Assembly (NCBI GenBank): GCA_050298595.1
Contig: JBNKUM010000067.1
Location: 2,976-66,975, forward strand
Reading direction: 5' to 3'
DNA: 64,000 nt
From: Gammaproteobacteria bacterium
Lineage (GTDB): Bacteria; Pseudomonadota; Gammaproteobacteria; GCA-001735895
The notes beneath the pieces are model-generated. The model had not been told where the DNA came from. It did not search any database and was given only the letters and a program-made list of their open reading frames with translations. Of this stretch, positions 12,909 through 37,927 are shown in pieces (within the stretch, counting starts at the first letter, position 1; each line of letters starts with the position of its first letter). Position numbers and translations under genes: made by a program.

Positions 12909-13973
12909 CTACAAAACCACCGGGAATTCCCCATGATGGTAAAAGGCATCTAGCTGATTGCTGCAGGATTCCAGATCAAAGTTGTTATCCGCCAGCCATT
13001 CATCATTGTAGTAGGTATGCTGGTAGCGCTCGCCACTATCGCACAACAGTGATACCACGCTGCCACTTTGACCCTTTTTATGCATCTCTGCCATAACCTG
13101 GAACGATGCGTAAACATTTGTCCCTGTCGATCCTCCACAACGTCGGTTGAGTAATTTCTGCAGGTAGTGGATGGTGGCTATAGAGGCTTCATCTGGAACC
13201 TTTATCATGTTGTCGATAACGCCAGAGATGAATGATGGCTCTACCCTTGGACGACCGATGCCTTCTATACGCGAGCCGCTGTTGATGGCGATGGAAGTAT
13301 CGCCGGTTTTGAAGTAATCGTAAAAAACCGAGTTTTCAGGGTCGGCTACACAGAGCTGGGTATTATGTTTTTTGTAGCGCACATAGCGGCCTAAAGTGGC
13401 CGAGGTGCCTCCGGTGCCAGCACTCATGACCAGCCAGCTGGGTTCGGGAAAGCGTTCGCAGGACATCTGCGCGAATATCGAATCAGCAATATTGTTGTTA
13501 CCGCGCCAGTCGGTGACACGCTCGGCATTAGTGAATTGATCGACATAGTGTCCGTTTAAATCCTCTGCCAGTCGTCTGGCTTCGGTATAGATATCGCCAT
13601 TGTCTACCAGATGGCATTCGCCCTGATAGAAACAGATCTGGCCGATTTTTTCCTGCGAGGTGCCGCGTGGCATTACCGCGATAAAACGCAGGCCTAACAG
13701 CTTGGCAAAATAGGCTTCGGAAACCGCCGTACTACCGGATGAGGATTCAATAATTGCAGTATCTTCATTGATGTTACCGTTACACAGCCCATACAGGAAC
13801 AGGGATCTGGCGAGTCGATGTTTCAGACTGCCGGTAGGGTGAGTGGATTCGTCTTTCAGATAAAAATCTATCTCCGGCAGGGCGGGTAGATCGACCCGGA
13901 TCAGATGGGTATCGGATGAGCGTTGAAAATCGGCTTCTATGGTAGCTATAGCCTGGTTGACCCATTCTCGCAT
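12909..13973 (-). CDS. PLP-dependent cysteine synthase / tryptophan synthase beta-fold (fold type II) family enzyme
   Basis: A PTGSLKHR lysine motif and a glycine-rich [12 protein letters not shown] loop. It is about 354 aa. Confidence 0.7.
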
Positions 13974-18079: not shown

Positions 18080-18553
18080 CTACGACTGCGCTGCCTGCTC
18101 TTCTCTCAGTTTATCCCGAATCCCCATCAGCAACTTGCCAAAGGCGTTATTGCCGCGCATATCGCGGCCGCTGCCCCAGAAGTAGTCGTACTGGCTTACA
18201 TCAACAATTTCTACCTCGCCTGAATCCAGTAACATTTGCGCAACTTCCGGATGAGTGCGGCATTTGATATACATACCGCGTGTCATATAGGTCACCTTGA
18301 CCATATCCCAGTCCTTGCGCCTTTGGTGTTTTTTGCTTTTGCCCAATTTGGCTGCTTCTTTGGGATGGCTCGTCTGACGGATCTGCGCACTGTATTCGGC
18401 ATCTCCGAATTTCATCGCCTGATAGTAATGCTCAACCGAAGGCCACTCAAAACCATCAAGTTCGAATGCGTGTTTAGAGTAGGAAGCCAGCAGGTGATTG
18501 GGATCATTACGCGTGAGGGTCAGGAGTTTTTTCTCTTTTTGGTCAAAAAACAT
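18080..18553 (-). CDS. NADAR (YbiA-like, DUF1768) family protein
   Basis: WPSVEHYYQAMKF plus the other NADAR signatures. I preferred the internal Met (MFFDQKEK...) as the start, because it is preceded by a GGAAAAG RBS-like sequence. Confidence 0.7.
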   Translation of the reverse strand: MFFDQKEKKLLTLTRNDPNHLLASYSKHAFELDGFEWPSVEHYYQAMKFGDAEYSAQIRQTSHPKEAAKLGKSKKHQRRKDWDMVKVTYMTRGMYIKCRTHPEVAQMLLDSGEVEIVDVSQYDYFWGSGRDMRGNNAFGKLLMGIRDKLREEQAAQS

Positions 18554-18740
18554 TATGCTTTTCCAAATTAGCCATGTGTGGGTAAAATACCATAAAGATT
18601 CCTGATCCAGATTGTTATTCAATTATTGGAGCAAGAATGTCTGAGGCTTTAAACTCCATATTTGAATTTTAACGAATACCTGTTCTCAGTTATTGTCACT
18701 AAACAGGCGTTTATGTCAGTCACCGCTTCAAACAATAAGC

Positions 18741-21869: not shown

Positions 21870-22790
21870 ATGGAAATCCGTCAACTACAGACTCTGATCA
21901 CCCTGATCAATAATGACTTCAATGTTTCGGTCACTGCTGAAAAGCTATTTCTGGTTCAATCAGCAGTATCTCAACAGTTAAAACGTCTGGAGCTGGAGCT
22001 GGGTAGCGGTTTATTTATACGCAAGGGTAAGCGTATGACCGGCCTCACCCCATTTGGCGAACAGGTCGAACAACTGGCGTATGAAGCAATTCAGGTATTT
22101 AAAAATATTGAACGCCTGGCAGAGGATCAACTGCAACACAGCCAGGGCATACTACGTATTGGCTGTACGCATACTCAGGCGCGCTATATATTGCCAGCCG
22201 TAATCAATCTGTTCAATCGCAGCTACCCGGATGTTGAGCTACAGATGCATCAGGGCAATCCGCAACAGCTGGTTGAATGGGCCGTCCACGATGTAGTGGA
22301 TTTTTCTATCTGCACGGAAGAACTTGCTCAATCAGATAAGCTTGAGAGCATCCCCTGTTATCGTTGGAATCGTTGTCTTATCACTCTGCCTGATCATCCG
22401 ATTCAGCAACTGCAAAAGCCCACACTGGCTGACCTGTGCAAATATCCCATTGTTACCTATGTCGTGGGGTTTACCGGGCGTAAAAGTTTTAATCAAACCT
22501 TCGAAAAAGAAAAGCTTAAACCCAACACCGTACTCAGTGCTGCGGATACCGATATCATCAAGACCTATGTGCTGGATGGATTAGGCATTGGGGTCATCGC
22601 CAGTATGGCTTACAATGAAAACATTGACAAACAGCTTTGCTTTAAAGATTTAAGCCATCTTTTCCCCTGGGAAACCACCCGCATCGCCTACCTGAAAAAT
22701 AAGTATATTCGACGTTATCAGCAAACCTTTATCGATTTGTTTCTGGAAACCATCCGCAAAGATCAAAGCTCCCGGTTCGAAGCCTTATAG
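21870..22790 (+). CDS. LysR-family transcriptional regulator (CysB/Cbl-like)
   Basis: The N-terminal HTH (NVSVTAEKLFLVQSAVSQQLKRLE) is similar to CysB. A LysR substrate-binding domain follows. Confidence 0.8.
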   Translation: MEIRQLQTLITLINNDFNVSVTAEKLFLVQSAVSQQLKRLELELGSGLFIRKGKRMTGLTPFGEQVEQLAYEAIQVFKNIERLAEDQLQHSQGILRIGCTHTQARYILPAVINLFNRSYPDVELQMHQGNPQQLVEWAVHDVVDFSICTEELAQSDKLESIPCYRWNRCLITLPDHPIQQLQKPTLADLCKYPIVTYVVGFTGRKSFNQTFEKEKLKPNTVLSAADTDIIKTYVLDGLGIGVIASMAYNENIDKQLCFKDLSHLFPWETTRIAYLKNKYIRRYQQTFIDLFLETIRKDQSSRFEAL

Positions 22791-22791
22791 G

Positions 22792-23217
22792 TTAATCAGT
22801 ATCGCGCACCTTCGAACGCAGATTTTTGATCTGTCCTTTATGAGTTTTTGAATCCATACGTTTTCGTTTTGCCGCTCTGGAGGGTTTAGTTGCAATTCGC
22901 TTCTTCTGACTGATGTTGACACTCTTTATCAATTCAGCCAATCGAGCGAATGCATCATCACGATTTTTTTCCTGAGTCCGATATCGTTGCGCCTTAATCA
23001 CTATGACGCCTTCTTTACTGATACGTTTATCCTTCAGATTAAGCAGGCGCTGTTTATAAAAGTCAGGCAGGGACGAACTTTCAATATCAAAGCGGCAATG
23101 TATCGCACTGGAAACCTTATTGACGTTCTGGCCACCTGGACCCTGTGCGCGGATGGCTTCGAGCTCTATCTCGGTTTCGGGCAGTGAAACGTTAGAAGAA
23201 ATCTTTAACGCAATCAT
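22792..23217 (-). CDS. arfB: Alternative ribosome-rescue factor, peptidyl-tRNA hydrolase ArfB
   Basis: A GGQ motif (GPGGQNVNK) and a basic C-terminal tail. Confidence 0.85.
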   Translation of the reverse strand: MIALKISSNVSLPETEIELEAIRAQGPGGQNVNKVSSAIHCRFDIESSSLPDFYKQRLLNLKDKRISKEGVIVIKAQRYRTQEKNRDDAFARLAELIKSVNISQKKRIATKPSRAAKRKRMDSKTHKGQIKNLRSKVRDTD

Positions 23218-23271
23218 ATTGTTCGCATGGGAGGTTAGATATTAATACCTGTATAGCCTTTTGTAGGTTGG

Positions 23272-24741
23272 TCATTCTCCACGCTGTTGATCAATACGTC
23301 GTCTGAACGAAGCCATAATGCTTTTATATAACTGATGCCCCAACACCTTGTCTTCTACTTCGGAATCTATACTGGGGTTATCATTCACTTCGATCACAAA
23401 TACACCCGCATCGGTTTCTTTTAGATCTACTCCATATAGACCATCACCAATCAGGTTAGCTGCTTTGACTGCGGTCTTAACTACCTTTTTGGGTGCAGCT
23501 TCTATGGTCATAGTTTCAAAGTCACCGCTATAGTTTTCACCTGCCGCATGATCGTAGATTTGCCAATGTCCGGAAGACATCATGTATTTACACACAAACA
23601 GAGGTTTACGATCGAGTACTCCTACGCGCCAGTCATAATCTGTGTACATGTATTCCTGCGCGAGGATAAGGTCAGAATCGCGAAACAGCTTTTGACAGGT
23701 AGATTTCAGCTCTTTTAAGTTTTCAGCCTTGTAAACACCACGAGAAAAGGAGCCGTCGGGTATCTTTAGAATAATAGGGAAACTAATATCCTTACTGAGT
23801 TGCTTTTCCTGACCCTTGCTCAGGATTAATGTCTTTGGTGTCGGCACCTTATTGGCACGTAATAATTCTTCCAGAAACACCTTGTTAGTACAGCGCAATA
23901 TCGAATCAGGATCATCCATCACCACCAGTCCTTCATTCTGCGCCCGGCGCGCAAAACGAAAGGTATGGTGATCTATGGAAGTCGTTTCACGAATAAACAG
24001 GGCATCATATTCAGCAATGCGACCGTAATCTTTTTTAGTGATCAATTCTGCGGACATGCCTGACTCGTTTGCCGCCTTAATAAAGCACCCGAGTGCCTCT
24101 GCATCTGATGGCGGTAATTTCTCCGCTGGATTGTGCAAGATTGCCAGTTCATATTTATATTGGCGCTGAGCTTTTGGTTTACGCCAGGGTTTACTCAGAT
24201 AAGCCTGTAACGCTGAGACAAAAGTAATCTTTTCCTGATCATCAAGAGACTTGAGTGAAACTGGCCGAACATCTTCTATCCTCCAACCTTTTTTATACCT
24301 GAAATCTACTCGCAGTAAAGGCGTACTAAAGATCTCAAAAATCTGTTGCCCCAGTTCCTGTAACTCAGGAATAGAGGAACGACCAAACATCACTTTGATT
24401 TTCAGGCGTGTTATTTCCGAAGATAGTCCTTTTTTACTGATGGCTTTTTCCACCTGGTTTTCAAGATTTCGTGTCATCAGGCTATAGATAGAGCGTCGAC
24501 TCAAATCCTGAATAGTGCGCACCGACGGTATTACCTTATGGTTCCTGGCTTCGGCTAGCAGTGAACAGTAATAGCCCAGACTGGCATAGCGATGACTGCG
24601 ACACAGATTGACGATGCGCAAGCGCTGCTCGGGGGGATAGCTTTTGCCTGTCAGGTATTCATTTACGGTAATCACTTTCAGATCCGGAAATTGCTTAGGC
24701 CAGTGTGACAGCTTTTCGACGATGACTATGTGCTCTGACAT
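23272..24741 (-). CDS. RimK-family ATP-grasp ligase with an N-terminal roughly 200-aa (RLAN-like) extension
   Basis: The C-terminal half is an ATP-grasp with RimK-like motifs (ILKIPDGSFSRGV, DGLYGVDL...VIEVNDNPSID). The N-terminal half is unassigned. Confidence 0.8.
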   Translation of the reverse strand: MSEHIVIVEKLSHWPKQFPDLKVITVNEYLTGKSYPPEQRLRIVNLCRSHRYASLGYYCSLLAEARNHKVIPSVRTIQDLSRRSIYSLMTRNLENQVEKAISKKGLSSEITRLKIKVMFGRSSIPELQELGQQIFEIFSTPLLRVDFRYKKGWRIEDVRPVSLKSLDDQEKITFVSALQAYLSKPWRKPKAQRQYKYELAILHNPAEKLPPSDAEALGCFIKAANESGMSAELITKKDYGRIAEYDALFIRETTSIDHHTFRFARRAQNEGLVVMDDPDSILRCTNKVFLEELLRANKVPTPKTLILSKGQEKQLSKDISFPIILKIPDGSFSRGVYKAENLKELKSTCQKLFRDSDLILAQEYMYTDYDWRVGVLDRKPLFVCKYMMSSGHWQIYDHAAGENYSGDFETMTIEAAPKKVVKTAVKAANLIGDGLYGVDLKETDAGVFVIEVNDNPSIDSEVEDKVLGHQLYKSIMASFRRRIDQQRGE

Positions 24742-24762
24742 TCTTTTTCTCAGCCCGGGTAA

Positions 24763-25866
24763 TTATTTTTTGTGGTTATTCGAAATCAATACGACAGCCT
24801 GCAGGCCAGAACGACCGAAACGTGCCATGCGTGAGAACTCCCTGCGCGGGATAGCGATATTGATTGAGTCAGTTGGTGTTTCTCCTTCCTCACGATCAAC
24901 AAAAGGGTCATTCACGTATACCAGATGCTGGTCAAATCCACAAACGACTACCCAGTGAGGATTCTTTTCACCATAAATACGGTAAGAACTGATCAGTACA
25001 ATCGGAATCGCACCTGAGTTAAGCCTGGCTTCCATCTCCGGTTGTTCCAGGTTCTGGTAATGCACCGGGATCTGGTAATCTTTGATCTCCCCCAGCATCT
25101 CTTCATGTACCAGACGCATGACTTCTTTCTTTTCTGGGCTACGTACTGTTTCCACAAATGGCACGCCCTGATCATTAACATGAATAACTGCATTGAATCC
25201 ACGCTTATGAGCCGCTAGCGCCAGACCAAAGGGGCCGCAGCCGCCATGGCCGGATGTCATAAATATCGTAGTCGCTTCACGCCATAGACGGATTTCCAGT
25301 GTTCTATCCAGTGTCAATTCAGGTTGCAGACTTTTCATTGCCATCATCAAAGCAGAAGCACCGCAGGTAAATTCCAGTGTCTGCTCGTAAAAAGGCATAT
25401 TGGCTAATTGTGGAGGCTGATCTGGTTGCAGGCTTTTCTCGAAGCGTAGTGCGGGCATATGATCTTCATAATAATCTGCCAGTACGCCAAAGCGATGGTA
25501 GCCCAGTCCTTCAAACAGTCGCAATGACGCAGCATTGTCTTCTCGTATTTCAAGGCGAATATAAAAACGTCCCTGATCACGTGCCGCGGTTTCGGCAGCA
25601 TTGACCAGCCGCCTGCCTATTCCCATGCCACGAGCGCGTTCCTCGATGGCAATAGAATACAGACGTGCAACCGAGGTTGCCCGGTTATATAGCACCATGA
25701 CATATCCAGCCAGCCCTTCATTATCTTCAGATAACAGTATATCCGCATGAGAGCGGGTCAGCAGATAACGCCATTGTCGACGTGAAATCAGGTCTGTCTC
25801 GAAACAACGTTTTTCTATACCCGTGAGCTGGTCAATATCAGAAAGTTTGGCAGGGCGGATCAACAA
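24763..25866 (-). CDS. Bifunctional GNAT N-acetyltransferase / C39-like cysteine peptidase
   Basis: The N-terminal half is GNAT (RARGMGIGRRLV). The C-terminal half has a papain-like Cys motif (FTCGASALMMAM) and a His (HWVVVCGFD). It lies 22 bp upstream of the RimK-family gene. Confidence 0.8.
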   Translation of the reverse strand: MLIRPAKLSDIDQLTGIEKRCFETDLISRRQWRYLLTRSHADILLSEDNEGLAGYVMVLYNRATSVARLYSIAIEERARGMGIGRRLVNAAETAARDQGRFYIRLEIREDNAASLRLFEGLGYHRFGVLADYYEDHMPALRFEKSLQPDQPPQLANMPFYEQTLEFTCGASALMMAMKSLQPELTLDRTLEIRLWREATTIFMTSGHGGCGPFGLALAAHKRGFNAVIHVNDQGVPFVETVRSPEKKEVMRLVHEEMLGEIKDYQIPVHYQNLEQPEMEARLNSGAIPIVLISSYRIYGEKNPHWVVVCGFDQHLVYVNDPFVDREEGETPTDSINIAIPRREFSRMARFGRSGLQAVVLISNNHKK

Positions 25867-26155
25867 AGTATCGCAATTGGGATATTTAGAAATCTTATCT
25901 TAGCAACTTTGAATAAAAAGGAAATGGATATTTTTTAAAGTTGGAATAGCTACTATGACTGTTATTTTTGGCATTAAATTGAATTCCTGACCAATATGAA
26001 AATCCGATAAAACTACTTTTTTGTGATCGTGCTCGTTAAAATACAGCCTTAACCACCAGATGAACCACAACAGTGATCAGTTTTTTTATCTGTTACATGA
26101 TGCCGTATCGTAAGCAACCACACACTTTACTTGCAAAAGAACATCGGGGTTCCTG

Positions 26156-27283
26156 ATGAGTTTCTGCCGCTTTTACGATAATGCAGACTGCCGTTCCTGT
26201 TCGTTGCTTGAGCTCTCCTACCCAATGCAATTGCAACAGAAAGAACAACAACTGCATCAGATTCTCGATCACTTCAAACCAGCCCACTGGCTTGCGCCGA
26301 TAACCGGATCTCAAACAGGTTTCCGCAACAAAGCAAAAATGGTCGCTACAGCGTCACCCCAGGGTATCGTACTCGGATTGTCTGGTGGCATTAGTCTGAT
26401 CGAATGTCCACTGTATGAAAGCAACATGCAAAGGGTATTGCAGCAGGTGCAGCGCTGGTTGAATACTATAGGGGTCAAAGCATATGACGTAAAACGTAAA
26501 AGCGGTGAATTAAAGTATGTATTATTCACCCGCAGCACATACGATAACTCGATGATGCTGCGTTTTGTATTACGCTCGACGTCCAGTATTGATGTTCTGC
26601 GCAAATCTCTCAACTTACTACTCAATAGCGCAACTGAATTAAAAGTAGTCAGTGTCAATCTACAACCTGTACACATGGCGATACTCGAGGGTGATGAAGA
26701 GATTTTTCTCACAGAGCAAACTGTGCTGGAGGAATCCCTGAATGGAATCCCGCTGTTCATCCGGCCCAAAAGCTTTTTCCAGACCAATCCTGAAGTAGCG
26801 GCAAAGCTATACCAGAGCGCAGCTGAATGGGTCGACTCTACCGGCGCTAAAACTATTATGGATCTGTTTTGCGGTGTCGGCGGATTTGCCCTGCATGTCG
26901 CGAATAATGATCGTAACGTCATTGGCATTGAAATCGAAGAGGAAGCCATCATCTGTGCGTCCAAATCTGCCAGGCGACTCGGCATCAATACTCTGAGCTT
27001 TAAAGCACTGGATGCAACGAGTTACAGCACAGAAACATCTACTCCGCCTGAGGTACTCATTGTCAATCCTCCGCGCAGAGGATTAGGCCAACAGCTATGC
27101 AACTGGATAGAAAGCAGTTCGCCTCAGCATATTATTTATTCAAGCTGTAATGCCGCCAGTCTCGGCCAGGATCTGACTGCAATGGAATCTTACAGTGTTG
27201 CCAAAGTACAGATGTTTGATATGTTCCCTCACTCGCGGCATTTCGAGACACTGGTTTATCTGGTAAAAAAAACAGGTAAATGA
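26156..27283 (+). CDS. rlmC: 23S rRNA (uracil747-C5)-methyltransferase
   Basis: An N-terminal Cys cluster (CRSCS) and near-colinear similarity to E. coli RlmC (GFRNKAKMV, LFCGVGGF, NPPRRG). Confidence 0.9.
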   Translation: MSFCRFYDNADCRSCSLLELSYPMQLQQKEQQLHQILDHFKPAHWLAPITGSQTGFRNKAKMVATASPQGIVLGLSGGISLIECPLYESNMQRVLQQVQRWLNTIGVKAYDVKRKSGELKYVLFTRSTYDNSMMLRFVLRSTSSIDVLRKSLNLLLNSATELKVVSVNLQPVHMAILEGDEEIFLTEQTVLEESLNGIPLFIRPKSFFQTNPEVAAKLYQSAAEWVDSTGAKTIMDLFCGVGGFALHVANNDRNVIGIEIEEEAIICASKSARRLGINTLSFKALDATSYSTETSTPPEVLIVNPPRRGLGQQLCNWIESSSPQHIIYSSCNAASLGQDLTAMESYSVAKVQMFDMFPHSRHFETLVYLVKKTGK

Positions 27284-27286: not shown

Positions 27287-30100
27287 TTAGTCTTTCAATG
27301 CTTTTAATATGGTCGTGTAGTCAAAGTTCCTGGCGAGCTGAGTCAGTTTGCTCTGTAATTCCTGGTCGTGCATCGAAACCTGCTGGATGACCGCCTCAAT
27401 GCGCTTGGACTCCAGGCTTTCTAGCACTTCAACGAACTCATTGCGCAGTGCTTCAGGCAGGCTATTCAACATCTGCGGCGTTAACGATATATCCGGTTCT
27501 ATTACGTCTGATTCCACAGCGCTCTCATAAAGATATTTCACGCCTAGCTGTCTTGAAAGGCAATCATAAATCTCGCCCGGTCGGTAGGGCTTGCGCACAT
27601 AGTCATCCATGCCACTAGCAAGCATTTCGTCCCGCTCTTCGTCAAACGCCGATGCAGTCACTGCAGCAATCTTAACCTCCTTGCCACCCGCTAATTCACG
27701 GATGCGCCGTGTCGCCTGTATGCCATCCATCACAGGCATGCGTCTATCCATCCAGATGAAATGTGGATGCCAGCTCTCAAACAGTTGTACCCCCTGCTCA
27801 CCGTTCTCGGCTATCCTGACCTTAAAACCAACAGATTCCATAAACCTGCTCAGTAGCAACTGATTATCACGCTGGTCTTCCACGATCAAAATACGATACT
27901 CGCCCTGGTCAGGGGCCAGCGCCATCACTTCGTCCTTGACGATCACCTGCTCTGCCATAGTAATATCTGCCTCCTGTGCTTCAATCAGGGGTAGGTCGAG
28001 CCTGAACAACGAGCCTTTACCTGGAGCACTTTCCAGCCAGATATTCCCGCCCATCATCTTTACAAATTGACGCGTAATCGTTAATCCCAGCCCGGTGCCT
28101 TTATTGGTACCCTGTTCGCCAAGTTGCACAAAAGGCTCGAAAACCTTTTGCTGGTCTTCAACCGCTATGCCAATGCCAGTGTCCTCTACATCGATCAGCA
28201 GATGAGAGATCTTATTATCCTTTGTGTCCAGGCGTAGCGTGACCCCCCCCTGCTCAGTATTTTTGATGGCGTTGCTTACCAGATTGATCAGAATCTGCCG
28301 TAGACGGGCCTGATCACCGACAATGAAACGTGGGAATAGAGAACTCTGGTCGATCCTTAATTGCAGGCCTTTGTTGAAAGCACGTTGCTGCATCATGTCA
28401 ATAATATCGCGCACCAGAGTACCCAGATCGAAGGCTGCATTTTCCAGATTCACCTGTCCCGCTTCGATCTTGGCCATATCTAGCACATCGTTAATCAGCG
28501 CCAGCAGATGTTTACCGCTACGACTAATAATTTCGATGTTCTCACGCAGGGATTCGTGTAGTAATGGATTATTGGTCATGAGTTCGGAGAACCCGAGGAT
28601 GGCGTTCAGAGGTGTGCGAAGTTCATGACTCATATTGGCCAGGAAGGCACTCTTGGCACGGCTGGCTGATTCAGCGTGTTCCTTGGCAGATAGCAACTGC
28701 CGATTTGAATCGGCTAACTCGTGAGTACGTTCATTCACCTTTGCCTCCAGGCCCCCAATTAATGCATGCAATTGACCTGCAATATTATTAAAGACGGATG
28801 TCAGCTCACTGATTTCATCTTCCGATTGGGGTGCTATTGGATGCTGTAGATAACGTCTCAGAGCAATACGCTGGCTATACTCTCTATCTACTTCTTCTTC
28901 CACCATCTCAGGTTTCTCCAGACCCATCGCAGATACTGCCCTGGTAAGCGCCCTGATCGGTGCAACGATTCTACTGATCAAGGAGTATCCGACGGCACCT
29001 CCCAACACAAGAATAAACACAGACGCGGCAATAATGCCCATGACGGTTTGGCGGATGGTGGCAATGGTGTTTTCCCTCGAAAGTGCCTGACTCAGAATAA
29101 GCGAGCTACCATCCTCTGCTATCTGCCAGGGCATAGAAGCCTGGTAGTAGGAATCCCCTCCTATATTTACGGTATGCAACTGGATAAGCGGGTCTCTTTG
29201 CGCAGACAAAACTTCAGTTGGTGTAGCCAGATCTACCAATTGAACACGCTGCTGCCCATCTGCGGAGATAATAGCCGGCAACAAACCCGTCTTCTCAGTA
29301 AGATTTTGCAGAAAGCCTTTGTCAAATACCTGAGTAAAAACAAACATACCGATCCTGACCGGTAAGTCCTCCTGCGTTAGCTGGGCTTGCAAAGCTGTCG
29401 TAGGCGTGGCTATGCTCAGGTTTTCGGCAATGACTTCGTTAAAAGACTGGCGAATCATACCTTGAATCGGCACTATCACGTGCAGCTCGATAACCTCTTG
29501 TGCAGGAAAATCGAAGCTTACCGTCACCCTGTCCACATTGGGAAAGTGGCGATGGATTGATCCTGGCAGTGGGATTTCTGACCAGTTACGCCAGTCATCC
29601 AGCGGTACCTTACCATTTCTGTACTGCTGAATCCCAACCACCCTAGTTTGACTATCGTGTCGCTTTATCATGCCCGCCGCCTGCGGCGTCACAAAATGTG
29701 ACAGGTCATCATCTAGATACACCGCCACACTGGACAGGCGTGCGGAGAGCAGGATTAACTGTAAGCGGTTTAAGGATGTGACCCGGTTAAGACTTACAGC
29801 GCTGTCGAGAGGAGCGCTAGGTTGATTTTTCAGCTTGAGTAGCTGGCTGTATAAAACAGCCATATCGCTAAGATTCTTTTCGTCACGCGCGGCTTGCATA
29901 GACACATTAGACATACGGTTGCGCATTTCCTGTAGATCGTTTTGAAATACGATCAACTCACGTGACAATCGGTTATAGGCTTCTGCCTGACTCTCGCGGT
30001 TAATCAGGTATGAAGCCAGCAGGGCATTAAGCAGCGTAACCGCTAACAGAAATGCCGCAAAGATAGCCAGTAGCTTGTATTTAATACTTACAATTTTCAC
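27287..30100 (-). CDS. Hybrid sensor histidine kinase (periplasmic domain of about 310 aa, HAMP, HisKA, HATPase, REC, C-terminal helical extension), paralog 1
   Basis: A 937-aa protein. Two TM segments flank the large periplasmic domain. It has an H-box ([17 protein letters not shown]) and REC (FIWMDRRMPVMDG). Confidence 0.9.
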   Translation of the reverse strand: MKIVSIKYKLLAIFAAFLLAVTLLNALLASYLINRESQAEAYNRLSRELIVFQNDLQEMRNRMSNVSMQAARDEKNLSDMAVLYSQLLKLKNQPSAPLDSAVSLNRVTSLNRLQLILLSARLSSVAVYLDDDLSHFVTPQAAGMIKRHDSQTRVVGIQQYRNGKVPLDDWRNWSEIPLPGSIHRHFPNVDRVTVSFDFPAQEVIELHVIVPIQGMIRQSFNEVIAENLSIATPTTALQAQLTQEDLPVRIGMFVFTQVFDKGFLQNLTEKTGLLPAIISADGQQRVQLVDLATPTEVLSAQRDPLIQLHTVNIGGDSYYQASMPWQIAEDGSSLILSQALSRENTIATIRQTVMGIIAASVFILVLGGAVGYSLISRIVAPIRALTRAVSAMGLEKPEMVEEEVDREYSQRIALRRYLQHPIAPQSEDEISELTSVFNNIAGQLHALIGGLEAKVNERTHELADSNRQLLSAKEHAESASRAKSAFLANMSHELRTPLNAILGFSELMTNNPLLHESLRENIEIISRSGKHLLALINDVLDMAKIEAGQVNLENAAFDLGTLVRDIIDMMQQRAFNKGLQLRIDQSSLFPRFIVGDQARLRQILINLVSNAIKNTEQGGVTLRLDTKDNKISHLLIDVEDTGIGIAVEDQQKVFEPFVQLGEQGTNKGTGLGLTITRQFVKMMGGNIWLESAPGKGSLFRLDLPLIEAQEADITMAEQVIVKDEVMALAPDQGEYRILIVEDQRDNQLLLSRFMESVGFKVRIAENGEQGVQLFESWHPHFIWMDRRMPVMDGIQATRRIRELAGGKEVKIAAVTASAFDEERDEMLASGMDDYVRKPYRPGEIYDCLSRQLGVKYLYESAVESDVIEPDISLTPQMLNSLPEALRNEFVEVLESLESKRIEAVIQQVSMHDQELQSKLTQLARNFDYTTILKALKD

Positions 30101-30184
30101 TATTAATTAGCATCAGTAATCGATGCACGTCCCTCAATCAATCAGCTGATAAAAAACAGGGGCTCGTTGCACATCCGTTCAACA

Positions 30185-31546
30185 CTACCGATGAGCATAA
30201 CCGTTATGATCTTGAATGTCCTGATCAATCTTTTCGGCTGCTTTACTGAGTTCGGCCTGCACATCAGCCCCTTTAATTATATTATCTACCGCCTCGGCGA
30301 AGACTTTGGTGATAGTTGCATAGGCTGGCGTGAGGGGACGAGGCACAGCCCAACCGGCTTCTATCTGTTGAACATACACGTTTAAAGGGCCACCTGGCTG
30401 GTAAAGCTCTGACCTGGCAAATGCCGATTTACGCGCCGGTACACCAGGGTGAATACCTGTCCAACGCACAATCTTGTCGGGTTGCAGAATATAGTCCAGG
30501 ATCGCCCAGCTCCCTTCAGGATTCTGGCAGGAGCTGGTGATACCAAAATTCCAGGCACCCAAACCAGTTTTGGGTCCATTGCCAAAGTCAGGCATGGGGA
30601 TGACAACCAAATCTTCGCCCAAAGCATCCGCATAGCTGCTATAGGTCCAGTGTCCTACCCAGGAAAGCGCCGCTTTGCCAGAAGCAAAATCCGTATCTCC
30701 CTGTGGGCTGGGGTTAGCCCAGCCCTTCTGGAACCAGCTCTGGAAATGCTGCATAGCTGTGACGGATTGAGGTCCATCCAGTACGCCTTTGGCAGACTGG
30801 TAGTTATTGCGATCAATCAAGTCACCGCCGAAAGACTGCAGGATGGGTGAAAAACCATAGGTAAAGAATTCACCGCGCCCATAGTTGATTTTCATATCCA
30901 GTGGATATTCAACGTCTGGGACGGCGGCCAGTTTTTCTAAAGCCGCTTCAAACTCAGCCAGATCCCATGGCTGCTGGATGGTAGGTATGCGCACGCCAGC
31001 TGCCTTTAGGTACTGGCGATTGCCATACATCGCCAGACCAGAGTCAACTATACCCAGTGTATACAGATTATTATTGTAGGTTCCCTGGGCAATGATAGAG
31101 GGCAGGAAATCGGCCTTCATCTGTGCTGACACAAAGCGGTCTATGGGTTGCAGGTAACCCAGCCAGGCCAGATATGAGACCATAGGTCCGTCAAAGAAAA
31201 GCAGGCAGGGCAGATCACCTGTGCGCCCGGCAGCCAGGATGCGGTCGGTGTAAATGCCTTCTGGCACCAGTGTCATCTCGGCTGAGTAGCGATCCTGCTC
31301 CTTGTTAAAGTCCTTCAGATTGAGTTCCATTGCTTTTAAGGCATTACCGGTACCGGCATTGAACCATACCGTCACGATTTGATTCCTGCTAACTGCGGCT
31401 GATGGAGGCTTAATCTTAGTGGGCGCTGGTTCAGGCGCTATACTGGCTGGTGGGCTTTTAGCAGTGGGTTCACTGGGTGGATCGCAAGCCGTTAGCACGG
31501 ATGCTAGCATGAATAAAATTATTAGATAACTAACCTTCTTGTGCAT
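30185..31546 (-). CDS. Orphan extracellular solute-binding lipoprotein (family-1, sugar-type SBP fold), paralog 1
   Basis: A 453-aa protein with a lipoprotein signal (LTAC). It has a MalE/UgpB-like architecture. There are no adjacent permease or ATPase genes. Confidence 0.85.
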   Translation of the reverse strand: MHKKVSYLIILFMLASVLTACDPPSEPTAKSPPASIAPEPAPTKIKPPSAAVSRNQIVTVWFNAGTGNALKAMELNLKDFNKEQDRYSAEMTLVPEGIYTDRILAAGRTGDLPCLLFFDGPMVSYLAWLGYLQPIDRFVSAQMKADFLPSIIAQGTYNNNLYTLGIVDSGLAMYGNRQYLKAAGVRIPTIQQPWDLAEFEAALEKLAAVPDVEYPLDMKINYGRGEFFTYGFSPILQSFGGDLIDRNNYQSAKGVLDGPQSVTAMQHFQSWFQKGWANPSPQGDTDFASGKAALSWVGHWTYSSYADALGEDLVVIPMPDFGNGPKTGLGAWNFGITSSCQNPEGSWAILDYILQPDKIVRWTGIHPGVPARKSAFARSELYQPGGPLNVYVQQIEAGWAVPRPLTPAYATITKVFAEAVDNIIKGADVQAELSKAAEKIDQDIQDHNGYAHR

Positions 31547-31765
31547 GACTTTTCACCTGTAAATGAATCGAATACCTTTTCAATCGTCGAGCTCTAATGA
31601 TCTGCCTGTCAGCAGCGGGATGCATGCGCTACTGCTTTTACTTTTATCTTCATACCCTTCAGACTCCTGAGTGTGAAAACCTATTTCTTACTTACGCGAT
31701 ATATAGCCCAGTTTGCACAGCGGTGTATGAATAATAAACGCCTCAGCCTTAGATCGACAGGCCAA

Positions 31766-34588
31766 TTATTCAGCCTTATTTAGTGCTCTTAATATAGCAG
31801 GGTAATCAAACTTACTGGCGAGCTGGCTGAGTGCCCTGTGTAACGCCGGGTCAATCGCCTCGGTGCGCTGGATCACTGCCTCAATGCTCTCGGGCTCCAG
31901 ACTTTCCAGTACCTCAATAAGCTCACTACGTAACACTTCTGGTAACTTTTCCAGCATCTGTGGCGTTAATACTACATGCTCATCTTGCGCCTTTGACGCA
32001 GTACTTCCGTACAGATATTTAACGCCCAGGTGTTTTGATATCACATCGTAGATTAGCGTCGCTCTGTATGGTTTGCTCACGTAATCGTCCATACCGATTT
32101 TTAGAATTTCATTGCGCTCCTCTTCAAAGGCCGAGGCGGTCACCGCGACAATCTTTACCTCTTTGCCGTCAGGCAATTCCCGGATACGTCGTGTTGCCTG
32201 CATGCCATCCATCACCGGCATATGTATATCCATCCAGATTAAATGTGGATGCCAGCTCTGAAACAGTTGTACACCCTGCTCACCATTTTCCGCCAGCTTT
32301 ATCTGGAAACCAACACTCTCCATAATTTCAGAAAGAAGGAGTTGATTGTCGCTCTGGTCTTCGACGATCAGGATACGGTATTCGGGTTGTCCCGGCGCAA
32401 GGCTAGTCACAACCCCCCTGCCAATCTGATCCGGTTTGCTGATATCCTGTTCCAGTGCTTCCTGCAAGATCAGTTCTATGCTGAATACCGTGCCTTTATC
32501 AATCTCGCTTTGCAGGCTGATACTGCCACCCATCATTTGCACGAACTGGCGCGTAATAGCCAGCCCGAGTCCCGTGCCCTTACTGCTATCCTTTTCACCC
32601 ACCTGTACGAAGGGGTCGAAGATAAGTTGTTGATCTTCAGGGCTGATACCTATGCCTGTATCCTCAACCTCGATCAGCAGATGAGATATTCTGTTTTGCT
32701 TTGTGGCCAGACGCAGAGTCACGCCCCCCTGCTGGGTAGCTCTGATGGCATTCCCTATCAGATTGATCAGAATCTGGCGCAGGCGCGACTCGTCGCCTAC
32801 GATGTAACGAGGGAACTGCGATGACTGGTCGACATGTAATTGCAGATCCTTATTTTCCGCGCGTATGCGCATCATATCGATAACATCTCGTAGCATACCG
32901 CCCAGATCAAAAGGCTCATTCTCCAGTTGTACCCGCCCGGCTTCTATCTTGGCCATTTCCAACACATCGTTGATCAGCGTTAGCAGGTATTCGCCACTAC
33001 GATTAATAATATTATTATTGTGCTGTAATCTTTCAGGCAGTGATGGATCCTGGTTCATCAGGTTGGAAAACCCGAGGATAGCGTTCAATGGGGTACGCAG
33101 TTCGTGGCTCATGTTGGCAAGGAAAGTACTCTTGGCTCGGTTGGCAACTTCGGCCTTTTCTTTGGCCGCCTGTAACTCCTGAGTGCGTTCGTCAACGCGT
33201 TGCTCCAGTGTTTCAAACGATTGCCGCAGTTGCCTGATCATGGCATTGAAGGCGGCGGCCAGTTGCCCTACTTCATCACTGGCTTTAAGGTCAATCTCGA
33301 TCAGCTTATCCGAGACTACAGGCGTATCTTTCGCTGTGGAACTATTAATCTGGGTGTTCAGACCGATGCGTGAAACGCTTTCCGTTAAGGCCACAATCGG
33401 TTTGACCAGACGATCTAACAGTATATAGCCCAATATCCAGACCACGATCAAAACCAGAGTAGCCAGGCCAATGAGTGCAGTAACGGTTTCTCGTATCTTC
33501 TGGGAGGCGCTCGCCCCTGATTGCGTAAACCCGATAATCAGCCGGGCTTTATCGCCATAGTGCAACAGGGTCAGGGCCTGGTAATAGGTTTCATCATCCA
33601 CGCTCAGAATCCTTTGTTGCATCGGTTGTTCAGGTGTCGCCTGACTCTGTTGCACCCATTGCACCAGATCTTCCGGCTTCATCTTCATTTTGACGATTTC
33701 GATTTGATGCATCCCATCTAACGAATACAGTGCTGGTAATAAACCACTTTTCTGCGCAATGCCTTGCAAAAATGCCTGGTCAAAGACCTTCTTGAATACA
33801 AAGGCACCAATGAGAACTGGTTTGATTTGGTCGGGATTTTTCTGGTTAAGCGCTTCCTGAGAAGCGATGACTGGATTGTTGACCACAAATCCTTCGGAGG
33901 AACCCAGGGTAATATTGTTTCGCATTACCGTTCGAGTAATTGCCTGTACCGGGACAACGATTTGCAATACCAACGCCTGCTGTTCAGAAAAATAAAAGGA
34001 AATCATGGGTTGCCTGGGTAATGTAATTTGAGATGAGATTAATGGAGGAGGGGTACCCAGCGGCCATATTGGCCAGTTATTGAACTTCATCTCTCCGCTC
34101 TGATCTGGATCAGTTTTAATCAGCCTCTGCTGCCCCTCCCGAAACACACTGATGCCAGCCTCAGTAGTAGTCACGAAATGACTTAACTCATTGCCCGTGT
34201 AAACGGCGGCGCTGGAAAATCCGGCCGTACGCAGAATAATCTGAAACCGATTCAGTGAAATGGTTTTATCGAACAGGAATCCGCGTTCATTCTTTGATGC
34301 TAGCTCAGGATAGTTCTTAAATTGCTGTGTTTTTGCATACAGCGTAGCCAGATCACTCAAGTTATCGATTCCGGTAACATTTTTTTCGGCAACCCTGCGC
34401 AGATCAGTTATCGTTTCCTGCAACTCGTACTGTAACAGGTCGGTCTGTTTGGTCAGGCTGCTAAACGCCTCTCGCTCGCTTTGTTGCGTGGTCAGGTAGA
34501 TGGCGAGTGCTACATTAAGCCCAGCGATAATGATCAGGGCCGTGCTAAACGCCAGCAGCAATTTCGTCTTGATACCCGATATGTTCAC
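31766..34588 (-). CDS. Hybrid sensor histidine kinase, paralog 2
   Basis: A 940-aa protein with the same architecture as 27287-30100 and clear similarity along its full length. Confidence 0.9.
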
Positions 34589-34614
34589 TGTAACTTGTCA
34601 GCTTTTTCTGTGCA

Positions 34615-35982
34615 CTATTTGATCGGATAGCCGCCGTGATCTTTTATATCCTGGTCAATTTCCTGCGCCGCCCGGTGAAGTTCCGTTTTGACGTCTGCGC
34701 CATTAATAATATTCTCCATCGCTTCGGCAAAGACCTTTGAGATCACGGCATACGCTGGAGTGATCGGACGAGGAATGGCGCGCTCGCTTTCCAGTTGTTG
34801 TGCAATCAAATGTAAGGGGCCTGATTCACCATACAATTTTGACTGTGCCAGCACTGACTTCCGGGCCGGTGGGCCTCCGTTTTCGTTCGTCATACGTAAC
34901 ATTTCCTGCGGGGATAGCAGGAACTCGATGAATGTCCAGGCGCCAGTGGGATCCGGGCAATTGCTGGATATCCCCCAGCTCCAGCTACCCATCGCGGTTT
35001 TTGACCCATACCCAAAATCAGGCTGCGGTAACAACACCAGATCTTCCCCCAGAGCCTCGGCATGCGGTTTGTACATCCAGTGCCCCACCCAGGCGAGGGC
35101 CGCTTTTTTAGATCCGTAAAAATCGTCGTCCGTGGTCCTGGATTTGCCGGCCCAGCCCTTTTCAAACCAGCTCTGAAAGTGTTGCATGGCCTCAATCGAC
35201 TGGGGACTATCCAGCACGCCAGTTGCATGCTGGTAGCTGCTGCGATCAATCAGATCACCACCAAATGACTGGATGATGGGCGTAAAACACCATGAATAAA
35301 ACTCGCCAGGACCATAATTAATTTTCATATCAATTGCATACTCTACGTCAGGCAGGGCGGTCAGTTTTGCCAGCGCCTCTTCAAATTCGACCAGATTCCA
35401 CGGTTTTTCAAAGGTCGGTATGCGGATTCCAGCCGCGTTCAGATAGCGGCGATTGCCGTAGATTACCAGCCCTGAGTCAAACTGTCCGAGGCTATAGAGC
35501 TGTCCGTTGAAGGTTCCCTGGGTGAGAATCGAGGGCAATAAGTCGGCTTTTAGATCTGCTGAAACAAAACGGTCAATCGGCTGCAGATAGCCTGGCCATG
35601 CAAAGTTATAGAGGTATGGACCGTCAAACTCCAGGGCGCAGGCCAAACTACCAGACTGTGCGCTGCCAATGATCCGGTCAGCATAGATTTCCGGTGCAAT
35701 CGGCACATATTCTATGGTGTATTTATTTTGAGCCTGCTCAAAGGCTTCCACCGACTTAGCAAACACATCACCTTCTATGCTGCCAGGTAACATATGCGTC
35801 CAGACGCTGATCACTTTGCGCCTGTCTGTCTGGGGCGAGGGTGTTGAAGGTAGCGCTGTTGGTACTGAAGAGGGAGCGGCTAAAGCAGTGGATGTAGTCA
35901 AGTCCGAAATCCTGCAAAAAGTTAGTATCATGGCCACCAGAATCAGCTTATTTTGATAAAGTATTTTCTTTCTCATTTTCAC
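34615..35982 (-). CDS. Orphan extracellular solute-binding protein, paralog 2
   Basis: A 455-aa protein, roughly 60% identical to SBP paralog 1 (QPIDRFVSA..KAD.LPSI..QGT, YGNR.YL.AAG.RIPT). Confidence 0.85.
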   Translation of the reverse strand: MKMRKKILYQNKLILVAMILTFCRISDLTTSTALAAPSSVPTALPSTPSPQTDRRKVISVWTHMLPGSIEGDVFAKSVEAFEQAQNKYTIEYVPIAPEIYADRIIGSAQSGSLACALEFDGPYLYNFAWPGYLQPIDRFVSADLKADLLPSILTQGTFNGQLYSLGQFDSGLVIYGNRRYLNAAGIRIPTFEKPWNLVEFEEALAKLTALPDVEYAIDMKINYGPGEFYSWCFTPIIQSFGGDLIDRSSYQHATGVLDSPQSIEAMQHFQSWFEKGWAGKSRTTDDDFYGSKKAALAWVGHWMYKPHAEALGEDLVLLPQPDFGYGSKTAMGSWSWGISSNCPDPTGAWTFIEFLLSPQEMLRMTNENGGPPARKSVLAQSKLYGESGPLHLIAQQLESERAIPRPITPAYAVISKVFAEAMENIINGADVKTELHRAAQEIDQDIKDHGGYPIK

Positions 35983-36121: not shown

Positions 36122-37927
36122 TTATTTCTGGAAATTTTCGGGTGAAATCCCCTTGCTGCACATCTCCAGAATTTTGTCTCCTGATACGGACTTGCTGTAA
36201 TAAAACCCTTGCGCAACATCACAATCCACGGATTTCAGAAATTCCTGCTGAGTACCCATCTCAACGCCTTCAGCAACCACTTTCAGATTCAGGCTATGGG
36301 CCATGGCAATAATGGCCAACGGAATCGCATTGCCATGCTCAGTACCAATGTTTTTTATAAAGGACTTATCGATCTTCAGTTCGTTGACGGGGAAATCCTG
36401 CAAATAGGCTAGACTTGAATATCCTGTTCCGAAATCATCAACTGAAAGCCCAACACCTAAATCATGCAGCTTGTTTAGAATATCCAGATTAGTTTTACTG
36501 TACTGCATCAGCAGACTTTCGGTTATCTCCAGTCCAAGCCTGGAGGGCGGTATCTGAAACTCTTCAATAGTACGATGCACGGTATCTTCAAAGCCATCTG
36601 AGTGTAATTGCGGCACTGAGATATTTACCGAGATAGATAAATCATCATAACCAGCATCATGCCATCGTCTTAATTCTGCACAACTCTCACGTAAGCCAAA
36701 CGCTCCAAGTTCCTTGATCAGTCCATTCGCTTCTGCTACCGGGATAAATTCTGCCGGGGATATCAACGTTCCATTGGCGAGACGCCATCGCATTAGCGCT
36801 TCAGCACCTATGATTTTATTTGTAGTTAAATCAATCTGTGGTTGATACTCCATAAACAGTTCCTGATTATGAATCGCATCTATGAGCAAATTGGAAAGGT
36901 TAAGATGATCCTGCACAGTCCTGTTTAATTCGCTGGTATACAGTTTGATTTCGGCTCGACCAGATTGCTTGGCGTGATACATGGCGGTATCGGCATTGCT
37001 CAACAGGGTATCCACATCCGTGCCGTCCTCCGGGTAAACAGCTATACCAATGCTAGCACCTATATGAAAATTCAAATCATTCATTTGAAATGGTATTCGA
37101 AGAGAATCAAATATTTTTCTGGCCATAGCCATGATATCTTGATTTTTCTGATGCAATGGTAGACAAATTACAAACTCATCTCCACCCAGCCTGGCAACAA
37201 TATCTTCATCACGTATGGCACTTTTAAGTCTATCGGCAACTTTACTTAGCAGCTTGTCGCCAGCATGATGTCCTAACGAATCGTTAATAATTTTAAATTG
37301 ATCCAGATCGAGAAACATCAATGCAATATTCTCATCACATCGTTTCGCTCGAGTGATTAGCTGGTTAAGTCGCTCCACCAACAATATACGATTGGGCATG
37401 TCGGTTAACGAATCATGAGTAGCGATATACCTGACCTGTTCTTCAACTCGCTTTCGCTCCTCAATTTCATGGCGTAATAAAACGTTAGCATCAACTAGCT
37501 CCTGAGTGCGCTCGCTAATACGTATATCAAGCTCTTTGCGTAAACCCGAAAGCTCGAGATGAGTATTGATTCGAGCCATTACTTCCGCAAAATTGATCGG
37601 TTTGGTAATGTAATCGACAGCACCCACGGCAAAACCATGCACCATATCGGATGTTTCTGTAGCAGCGCTTAAGAATATGATAGGGATATCTATCAGATCC
37701 TGTTCTAATCTGATGCGACGACAGGTCTCATAGCCATCAATACCCGGCATCATAATATCAAGCAGAATAAGGTCTGGCTTAGGGAGATTGGCCAGTTTTA
37801 GGCGTCGAAGTGCCTGTTCTCCACTTTGCGCGACTGCTATCTTGAGATTCTGCCCCTCAAGACCGTCAACTAGCAACTTCAGATTGGCAGGATTATCGTC
37901 AACTAGCAGGATAATTTTACTTACCAT
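36122..37927 (-). CDS. Response regulator with REC, GGDEF and EAL domains
   Basis: A CheY-like REC (LILLDIMMPG) and intact GGDEF (RLGGDEFVI) and EAL (GAEALMRW) motifs. Confidence 0.9.
   Translation of the reverse strand: MVSKIILLVDDNPANLKLLVDGLEGQNLKIAVAQSGEQALRRLKLANLPKPDLILLDIMMPGIDGYETCRRIRLEQDLIDIPIIFLSAATETSDMVHGFAVGAVDYITKPINFAEVMARINTHLELSGLRKELDIRISERTQELVDANVLLRHEIEERKRVEEQVRYIATHDSLTDMPNRILLVERLNQLITRAKRCDENIALMFLDLDQFKIINDSLGHHAGDKLLSKVADRLKSAIRDEDIVARLGGDEFVICLPLHQKNQDIMAMARKIFDSLRIPFQMNDLNFHIGASIGIAVYPEDGTDVDTLLSNADTAMYHAKQSGRAEIKLYTSELNRTVQDHLNLSNLLIDAIHNQELFMEYQPQIDLTTNKIIGAEALMRWRLANGTLISPAEFIPVAEANGLIKELGAFGLRESCAELRRWHDAGYDDLSISVNISVPQLHSDGFEDTVHRTIEEFQIPPSRLGLEITESLLMQYSKTNLDILNKLHDLGVGLSVDDFGTGYSSLAYLQDFPVNELKIDKSFIKNIGTEHGNAIPLAIIAMAHSLNLKVVAEGVEMGTQQEFLKSVDCDVAQGFYYSKSVSGDKILEMCSKGISPENFQK

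Follow-up and report, generated by a model that had tools for sequence, protein, structure and literature searches.

A conserved gene pair encoding a GNAT–cysteine peptidase fusion and an RLAN-RimK ligase in a gammaproteobacterium, and its candidate role in the metabolism of an N-acetylated acidic peptide

Organization of the locus

The locus lies in a 64,000-nucleotide stretch (hereafter, the window) of contig JBNKUM010000067.1 from a Gammaproteobacteria bacterium (GenBank assembly GCA_050298595.1). Two adjacent genes on the minus strand, identified by their open reading frames and Pfam domains, form the pair considered here. The features of the pair and its flanks are as follows:

24763..25866, minus strand: gene 1, GNAT–DUF3335 (C39-like cysteine peptidase) fusion, 367 aa, apparent TTG start
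25423..25866, minus strand: GNAT domain of gene 1, aa 1–148, similar to RimI and N-terminal acetyltransferases (Pfam Acetyltransf_1)
24784..25398, minus strand: papain-like/C39-like cysteine peptidase domain of gene 1, aa 157–361
25363..25365, minus strand: codon of Cys168
24955..24957, minus strand: codon of His304
24742..24762, minus strand: untranslated spacer of 21 nt between the genes (ttacccgggctgagaaaaaga), with a weak purine-rich stretch ahead of the ATG of gene 2
23272..24741, minus strand: gene 2, RLAN–RimK-type ATP-grasp ligase, 489 aa, ATG start, named 'RimK family protein' by NCBI
24157..24741, minus strand: RLAN domain of gene 2 (PF14401), aa 1–195 (Pfam match 27–175, E 1.2e-49)
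23362..24150, minus strand: complete RimK/LysX-clade ATP-grasp module of gene 2, aa 198–460 (Pfam RimK, NCBIfam, and PDB alignments to LysX and RimK)
22792..23217: arfB (NCBIfam ArfB, 193 bits; cutoff 100)
26156..27283: rlmC (TIGR02085, 476 bits; cutoff 429)

The first-pass annotation of this DNA had placed both open reading frames at these positions, and the spacer between them measures 21 nt. It had also described gene 1 as a fusion of a GNAT acetyltransferase with a C39-like peptidase and gene 2 as a RimK-type ATP-grasp, an architecture borne out by Pfam, and had named the flanking arfB and rlmC, both of which score above their NCBIfam cutoffs. The 367-aa form of gene 1 recurs on four public contigs. 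No terminator-like site was found on the minus strand within 22600..26400, inspection of the N-termini revealed no hydrophobic segment in either gene product, and PADLOC gave no meaningful match to anti-phage defence systems.

Domain structure of the ligase

The ATP-grasp module of gene 2 carries the ATP-binding lysines and the D/E/N Mg2+ triad that define carboxylate-amine ligases of the RimK/LysX clade. The Pfam RimK domain (PF08443) covers residues 286–460 (E 7.5e-12), and the active site, whose mutation would have spoken against a working ligase, is intact: K287, K326, Q362-E363, R372, D439, E451, and N453 are all present. Five of these (K287, K326, D439, E451, N453) are invariant across 14 sequences and align to K100, K141, D248, E260, and N262 of E. 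coli RimK; the match range is consistent with the PDB alignment. Gene 2 scores below the curated NCBIfam cutoffs of every characterised RimK-clade equivalog (rimK_fam, 83 bits; LysX, 82 bits), and hence the incoming amino acid is not settled by the sequence. Assignment to RimK proper, the ligase that adds glutamate to S6, was rejected on both score (NF007764, 23.7 vs. 331 bits; TIGR00768, 83 vs. 143.4) and architecture, i.e., 489 aa with RLAN vs. approximately 300 aa without an extra domain.

The N-terminal part of the ligase, approximately 200 residues that had been left unassigned, corresponds to a named Pfam domain, RLAN, itself functionally uncharacterised. Gene 2 has the N-terminal RLAN followed by a RimK-like ATP-grasp that define the RLAN-RimK family, and it shares 53–89% identity with hundreds of proteins that have this two-domain layout and a length of about 490 aa. 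RLAN is basic, with a pI of 9.9 in gene 2 and a median of 9.3 across 137 homologues, which would fit an anionic ligand. Its near-invariant motif is N45-L-C-R...G56-Y-Y-C-S-L-L-A-E-A-R-x-H68...P72..R75-T76. In an AF2 model of moderate confidence, RLAN resembles a truncated, non-catalytic ATP-grasp that retains the pre-ATP-grasp and central parts; ArgX and LysX/ArgX are among its best fold matches. A search of the RLAN profile against PDB sequences returned only noise. Sequence support for RLAN as an internal duplicate of the ATP-grasp was not significant: the hhalign alignment was collinear and scored 20.9 (E 0.036), while column shuffles reached 22.3.

Domain structure of the GNAT–peptidase protein

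In gene 1, Acetyltransf_1 (PF00583) spans residues 22–123 (E 8e-16), and the acetyl-CoA motif R/Q-x-x-G-x-G/A characteristic of GNAT proteins is present as RGMGIGRRL (aa 79–87), where G82 is at least 95% conserved among 57 homologues. The domain also contains a conserved Y132-Y133-x-D135. Its top NCBIfam match is rimI (TIGR01575), at 67.8 bits below the cutoff of 86.4; given also 28.7 vs. 173 bits for NF007025, gene 1 was rejected as RimI, the S18 alanine acetyltransferase equivalog. The best PDB matches are Ard1, Naa20, Naa30, and RimI. The domain is closer to such protein N-terminal acetyltransferases (Ard1, Naa, RimI) than to amino-acid acetyltransferases, and hence a protein substrate would fit equally well.

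The second domain, DUF3335 ('Peptidase_C39 like family'), occupies residues 157–361 (E 8.5e-88). It has the features of papain-like (clan CA) peptidases of the C39-like/DUF3335 type: the fold, the oxyanion Gln162, Cys168 on the N-terminal helix, His304, and Asp320. The peptidase Cys and downstream His noticed previously are Cys168, in the motif FTCGASALMMAM (residues 166–177), and His304, each at least 95% conserved among the 57 homologues. A Gly-rich loop is formed by G206-H-G-G-C210. Homologues of gene 1 carry the name 'GNAT family N-acetyltransferase/peptidase C39 family protein'. DUF3335 has been placed near Guanylate_cyc_2 (PMC10318531).

Conservation of the pair and its genomic context

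Separation of the two genes in related genomes would have spoken against the first-pass reading; instead they are strongly conserved together: a GNAT gene adjoins RLAN-RimK in 77 of 80 genomic loci. The genes are co-directional in 26 of these pairs and divergently transcribed in 51, and the description 'operonic' does not hold as a general property. The peptidase domain is missing from 18 of the 77 partners, which consist of GNAT only; the partner in the window is the fused form. The GNAT and the ligase are the obligate core of the module and the peptidase is optional, as expected of a turnover or editing function.

Single-chain GNAT-RLAN-RimK proteins are encoded in Maridesulfovibrio RefSeq genomes (e.g., WP_415716254.1), and we also found one GNAT-C39-RLAN-RimK read-through ORF and one DUF3335-RLAN fragment. 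Adjacency in two orientations, combined with such fusions, is the pattern expected for two steps of one pathway. A SET-domain gene lies 12 nt after the Maridesulfovibrio fusion gene. Within Gammaproteobacteria the module is found widely, among others in Pseudomonas, Marinobacter, and sulfur oxidisers, and at least 591 species-representative genomes among those scanned carry it. Clustering yields about 1000 RLAN groups at 50% identity and, for RLAN-RimK, at least 8000 homologous groups at 90% identity.

When the ORFs of the 80 loci were clustered all against all, no third conserved gene emerged, only synteny at the level of taxa. The next largest cluster comprises 13 loci, and the immediate downstream neighbours are heterogeneous. 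The same loci contain no conserved transporter (ABC exporters included) or other biosynthetic gene, and no amidotransferase was found among the neighbours. A precursor peptide encoded nearby had been considered, but no conserved small ORF was found outside the two genes, all hits being alternative frames within them. The previously suggested link to the ribosome through arfB and rlmC does not survive the comparison, as neither gene neighbours the pair in any of the 80 loci or in the closest, 73%-identical relatives; their presence here is a coincidence. Neighbouring genes for RsmF or JmjC_2 occur sporadically, no more than expected by chance. A polyamine neighbourhood, found at one locus only, is not a conserved feature.

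Comparison with known systems

The RimK/RimB system resembles the pair in having a ligase of the same clade, whose ATP and Mg2+ ligands are all retained in gene 2, and a partner peptidase that could reverse the ligation. Such opposition of ligase and protease is described for RimK with RimB and for RloC with RloA (PMC12239564). On the other hand, gene 2 is only about 21% identical to RimK over 224 residues and has the additional 195-aa RLAN, its partner is a GNAT–cysteine peptidase rather than a retropepsin, and no link of the pair to rpsF or the ribosome emerged. Among PDB sequences, the ATP-grasp part matches LysX/ArgX best (E 1.7e-7), but the score of 82 bits is far from the cutoff of 275.6, and a gene for a LysW-like carrier is absent nearby.

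The Ngg/NAGGN locus (PA3459–PA3461), which encodes an amidotransferase, the GNAT–ATP-grasp protein Ngg, and PA3461, likewise combines an acetyltransferase, ATP-grasp peptide-bond formation, and a peptidase, and single-chain GNAT-ligase fusions exist in both systems. PA3461 is presumably an M42 peptidase, as in the TIGRFAM 'trio' models. Ngg N-acetylates Gln and forms the NAGG peptide bond, and its operon includes PA3461 (PMC8070244). The peptidase of our pair belongs to another clan (papain-like), and its ATP-grasp is RimK-like with RLAN. The GNAT domain matches the Ngg model TIGR03103 weakly (E 1.2e-5); orthology to Ngg, the N-acetylglutaminylglutamine synthetase, was rejected, given 24 bits vs. 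a cutoff of 569 and no neighbouring asnO-type amidotransferase.

In mammals, NAT8L produces an N-acetyl amino acid that a RimK-like ligase extends with glutamate; RIMKLA and RIMKLB add Glu to N-acetyl-aspartate, giving N-acetylaspartylglutamate (PMC3872778). By analogy of activity, no other system comes closer in mechanism to the pathway proposed below, although the GNAT here is RimI-like. Finally, the peptidase domain shares the papain-like fold cluster and the Gln/Cys/His/Asp residues with C39 double-glycine peptidases, the C39-like protein 3erv, PeiR, and Alr0975, but it forms its own Pfam family and is fused to a GNAT, not to an ABC transporter. It was rejected as a bacteriocin-processing C39 peptidase, since the 80 loci show neither an ABC transporter nor a conserved small ORF.

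Proposed function and alternative explanations

We tentatively propose, at somewhat less than even confidence, that the pair is a self-contained cytosolic module for the non-ribosomal synthesis and turnover of a small N-acetylated acidic peptide. The ATP-grasp of gene 2 would use ATP to convert a carboxylate into an acyl-phosphate and then couple it to an incoming amino acid through the latter's alpha-amino group, in one or several rounds; L-glutamate is the most likely candidate. The RimI-like GNAT would transfer an acetyl group from acetyl-CoA to a free alpha-amino group. If this group belonged to the starter amino acid, an N-acetyl 'primer' would result as the acceptor; alternatively, the finished peptide would be acetylated. 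Where present, the fused cysteine peptidase may hydrolyse or trim the product, opposing the ligase. The basic RLAN, as a catalytically dead half-ATP-grasp, could hold the anionic acceptor or growing chain, or dock the GNAT partner. By analogy with Ngg/NAGGN, NAT8L with RIMKLA, and RimK-RimB, the product would be an N-acetylated (oligo)glutamyl peptide. In a more specific and rather doubtful version, the product would be an N-acetylated peptide or polymer of oligo-alpha-glutamyl (or a related acidic) type that has not been described so far, with RLAN as a pseudo-enzyme, half of a duplicated ATP-grasp, that holds the primer or chain, and the C39-like domain as a dedicated depolymerase.

The main rival to a small-peptide product is the tailing of a protein encoded elsewhere, which we consider possible but on the whole unlikely. 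RLAN-RimK would extend a specific target, docked by RLAN, with glutamates or some other residue at its C-terminus or on a side chain, the C39-like peptidase would remove the tail in the manner of RimB, and the GNAT would acetylate the same or a partner protein. S6 and LysW, the proteins served by the founding members of the RimK/LysX clade, are indeed modified at their C-termini; the GNAT, in both structure and sequence, comes closest to protein N-terminal acetyltransferases; and an acidic tail or the ribosome could be a docking partner for a basic RLAN. The gene next to the Maridesulfovibrio fusion encodes a SET domain, a type that usually methylates protein lysines. The antagonism of RimK and RimB is an established precedent (PMC12239564). 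Yet no candidate target conserved nearby was found, genes with a link to the ribosome are not a conserved feature of the neighbourhood (arfB and rlmC, 0 of 80 loci; RsmF and JmjC_2, sporadic), and the strict requirement for a GNAT together with the GNAT-ligase fusions is more simply explained by two steps on one small molecule.

Two further explanations fit the comparative data less well. Conjugates of the glutathionylspermidine type, in which the ligase joins an amino acid or peptide carboxylate to a polyamine or other amine, a papain-like amidase opposes it (cf. the CHAP amidase of Gsp synthetase/amidase), and the GNAT acetylates the amine, appear improbable: the ATP-grasp is of the RimK/LysX clade, not of the Gsp synthetase type, and the only polyamine neighbourhood is not conserved. 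Least plausible is maturation of a RiPP or bacteriocin, with the C39-like domain cutting a double-glycine leader from a ribosomal precursor and the ATP-grasp and GNAT modifying the peptide. The missing precursor and exporter genes already largely refute it; moreover, the loci share no further biosynthetic gene, 18 of 77 systems lack the peptidase, and the ATP-grasp is RimK-like rather than of the graspetide type.

Implications

The pair is a typical representative of a two-gene module that is widespread and already has a name; systems of this kind were reportedly defined by Iyer et al. in 2009. In line with its initial description as experimentally uncharacterised, the literature searched contained no experiments on DUF3335, RLAN, or 'RimK family protein'. 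The module is common in well-studied genera (Pseudomonas, Marinobacter), yet it has no assigned function; its most likely task is the synthesis and trimming of a small N-acetylated acidic peptide. Of the other RimK-type systems, RimK/RimB control ribosome function and RloABC controls stress tolerance, biofilm formation, and antibiotic resistance. Ngg makes a major osmoprotectant. The obligate GNAT-ligase core, the optional peptidase, and the natural fusions offer biochemistry a clear, testable design, and the modelled likeness of RLAN to a dead half-ATP-grasp provides a structural hypothesis for substrate handling. If the depolymerase version of the proposed pathway is true, the module would join RimK-RimB and RloABC as a third RimK-type ligase/peptidase system, with a mechanism of its own.

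Organization of the locus

Both minus-strand ORFs that the first-pass annotation had claimed are present exactly at the positions it gave, separated by a 21-nt spacer, and no terminator-like site was found on the minus strand in the scanned segment 22600..26400. Gene 1 apparently starts with a TTG codon (25864..25866), and public gene calls agree on its 367-aa product. The N-terminal 200 residues of the ligase encoded by gene 2 had been described as unassigned; this extension is in fact already named, since Pfam matches the RLAN domain there, though RLAN is functionally uncharacterized. Several MAG contigs carry identical proteins in the same local gene order, and among the matches listed the closest named homolog of the ligase is that of Achromatium (67% identity).

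The two genes and their domains
24763..25866, minus strand: gene 1, GNAT-DUF3335, 367 aa
Gene 1, residues 22-123: GNAT domain (Pfam)
Gene 1, residues 157-361: DUF3335, "Peptidase_C39 like family" (Pfam, E 8.5e-88)
23272..24741, minus strand: gene 2, RLAN-RimK ATP-grasp, 489 aa
Gene 2, residues 27-175: RLAN, "RimK-like ATPgrasp N-terminal domain" (Pfam, E 1.2e-49)
Gene 2, residues 286-460: RimK-type ATP-grasp (Pfam)

Conservation of the gene pair

Clustered at 90% identity, the ligase family still comprises at least 8000 groups, and the RLAN profile retrieves 1023 clusters when the identity level is set at 50%. Species-representative genomes were scanned and gave at least 591 matches; neighborhoods were counted in 80 loci fetched from among these. 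The proposed conservation of the pair was borne out, as a homolog of the GNAT gene directly adjoins the ligase in 77 of the 80 loci, and one of the three remaining loci is cut off by a contig end. Co-directional pairs, arranged as in the window, account for 26/77 (median gap 36 nt), and divergent pairs for 51/77 (median gap 209 nt). The peptidase domain is found on 59 of the 77 GNAT partners, whereas 18 are GNAT-only, with no peptidase within 6 kb. Because the pairing is nearly universal while these 18 partners lack the peptidase, the conserved core is GNAT plus RLAN-RimK, and the peptidase is accessory.

The link between the GNAT and the ligase is strengthened by natural fusions. Single-chain GNAT-RLAN-RimK proteins of 663 aa were observed, one of them a RefSeq protein from a 4.3-Mb Maridesulfovibrio contig, and a DUF3335-RLAN fragment was also found. 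At an uncultured gammaproteobacterial MAG locus (L001, 4978..7479), GNAT-C39 reads through into RLAN-RimK as one 833-aa ORF without an intervening stop; this ORF represents either a genuine fusion of all four domains or a fault in the assembly.

Genomic neighborhood

The arfB and rlmC genes were correctly identified by the first-pass annotation (NCBIfam scores above the cutoffs), but the ribosomal link drawn from them does not hold: ArfB and RlmC neighbor the pair in 0/80 loci and are absent beside it in relatives at 72-73% identity. The ribosomal context of the pair is spurious. Sporadic ribosome-related neighbors, namely, RsmF at two loci and a JmjC_2 gene at one, occur by rough estimate at about chance level among some 160 neighboring genes. 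JmjC_2 is the family of ribosomal-protein hydroxylases. In a 73%-identical relative (L086, 334..2460), the pair is immediately preceded, on its upstream side, by a JmjC_2 gene together with a small GNAT and a DUF7931 gene.

Clustering of ORFs from the 80 loci revealed no third conserved gene beyond taxon-level synteny, and downstream neighbors of the ligase are heterogeneous. A search of the same loci for a precursor-peptide ORF, as had been suggested, returned as conserved small ORFs only alternative frames within the two genes. AstE/AspA-family genes (succinylglutamate desuccinylase/aspartoacylase) lie directly downstream of the ligase in 2/69 loci, and these rare neighbors would fit N-acyl amino acid metabolism. 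At the Maridesulfovibrio locus (L085), a SET-domain gene (8004..8600) begins 12 nt beyond the GNAT-RLAN-RimK fusion gene (6001..7992), and a polyamine biosynthesis cluster (8679..13881) flanks the fusion gene on the opposite strand.

Further neighbors in the window encode a LysR regulator, a DsrC/TusE-like protein, and a GDPD phosphodiesterase. The window also contains another adjacency of an acetyltransferase and a protease, as well as a tandemly duplicated module (27287..35982, minus strand). A response-regulator gene on that strand adjoins the module and lies upstream of its two copies.

Other features of the window
18080..18622, minus strand: NADAR-domain protein, 180 aa
30185..31546 and 27287..30100, minus strand: periplasmic solute-binding protein (SBP_bac_8) and hybrid histidine kinase, copy A
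34615..35982 and 31766..34588, minus strand: the same, copy B
36122..37927, minus strand: response-regulator-GGDEF-EAL protein
38723..39430, plus strand: second GNAT, 235 aa, directly upstream of the following gene
39534..40202, plus strand: Rce1-like (CPBP) intramembrane protease
41397..42830, plus strand: DDE transposase (DUF772/DDE_Tnp_1)

Catalytic residues and the RLAN domain

Residues K287, K326, Q362, R372, D439, E451, and N453 of the ATP-grasp domain are invariant in a 14-sequence alignment and line up with the canonical LysX motifs. They also align with K100, K141, D248, E260, and N262 of E. coli RimK, over a range that agrees with the PDB match. The GNAT domain retains the acetyl-CoA motif RGMGIGRRL and a conserved Y132-Y133-x-D135; its best relatives are the protein N-terminal acetyltransferases Ard1, Naa20, Naa30, and RimI, and its best NCBIfam match, rimI, falls under the cutoff. 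In the peptidase, a Gly-rich loop T-S-G-H-G-G-C (residues 203-208; nt ~25243..25260) is near-invariant and forms the only low-confidence segment of the domain model (pLDDT <50). This segment is possibly a mobile loop of the active site, resembling the one mentioned in the title of the streptopain entry 4d8b.

An AF2 model of ligase residues 1-205 (pLDDT 77, pTM 0.74) was compared with PDB. Foldseek returned almost solely ATP-grasp structures (E from 2.5e-3, query-normalized TM-score 0.45-0.53), a likeness at the level of the fold of a predicted model. Since, in addition, RLAN is too short for the C-terminal catalytic subdomain and conserves no equivalents of the ATP-binding lysines, it looks like a truncated, catalytically dead ATP-grasp-like module preceding a complete ATP-grasp. 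The RLAN profile matched no PDB sequence. When profiles of the two halves of the ligase were aligned with each other, the alignment was plausible and collinear but scored within the range of column-shuffled controls. The domain contains a near-invariant patch (N45-L-C-R ... G56-Y-Y-C-S-L-L-A-E-A-R-x-H68 ... P72 ... R75-T76) and is basic (pI 9.9 in the window; median 9.3 over 137 homologs), in contrast to the acidic ATP-grasp half.

Predicted function

To our knowledge, every characterized member of the RimK/LysX clade (RimK, LysX/ArgX, MptN, CofF, RIMKLA/B) attaches glutamate (or alpha-aminoadipate), through its alpha-amino group, to a carboxylate. The activities of the pair are also combined in three known systems, one of which includes PA3461, an M42 peptidase in the TIGRFAM "trio" models. 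Ngg, encoded in an operon with PA3461, acts on glutamine as an N-acetyltransferase and also makes the peptide bond in NAGG, an osmolyte precursor (PMC8070244); in mammals, an acetyltransferase provides N-acetylaspartate, to which the RimK-like RIMKLA/B then add glutamate (PMC3872778); and RimK and RloC are each partnered by an oligoglutamate-cleaving protease (PMC12239564). By analogy, the most economical reading, which we favor tentatively, is that the pair may constitute a cytosolic, non-ribosomal pathway to an N-acetylated acidic peptide. The GNAT would supply or cap an N-acetylated starter, RLAN-RimK would add one or more glutamates to it, and the C39-like domain, where present, would hydrolytically cleave the ligase product, while RLAN would bind the anionic acceptor or else the partner.

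The resemblance of the GNAT to protein N-terminal acetyltransferases and the SET-domain gene adjoining the Maridesulfovibrio fusion favor the main rival, in which the ligase would tail a protein from another locus much as RimK does; we regard this as less likely than the reading above. A system producing glutathionylspermidine-like amine conjugates is less likely than such tailing and seems improbable. Maturation of a RiPP, also less likely than tailing, would have to proceed without a precursor, an exporter, or a constant peptidase, and is very improbable.

The architecture and gene neighborhood were reportedly described through comparative genomics by Iyer et al. in 2009, said to be the source of the Pfam family RLAN. 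The DUF3335-GNAT fusion is on record (PMC10318531), both proteins already bear NCBI names, and full-text literature searches found no experimental work on the family, in line with the first-pass description of the module as experimentally uncharacterized. Hence, the locus is a typical representative of a described, experimentally uncharacterized module. To this description our analysis adds that no precursor or third partner was found in 80 loci, that the ribosomal context is spurious, that RLAN looks like a dead half-ATP-grasp, and that the GNAT and the ligase form an obligate core, which also occurs as single-chain fusions.
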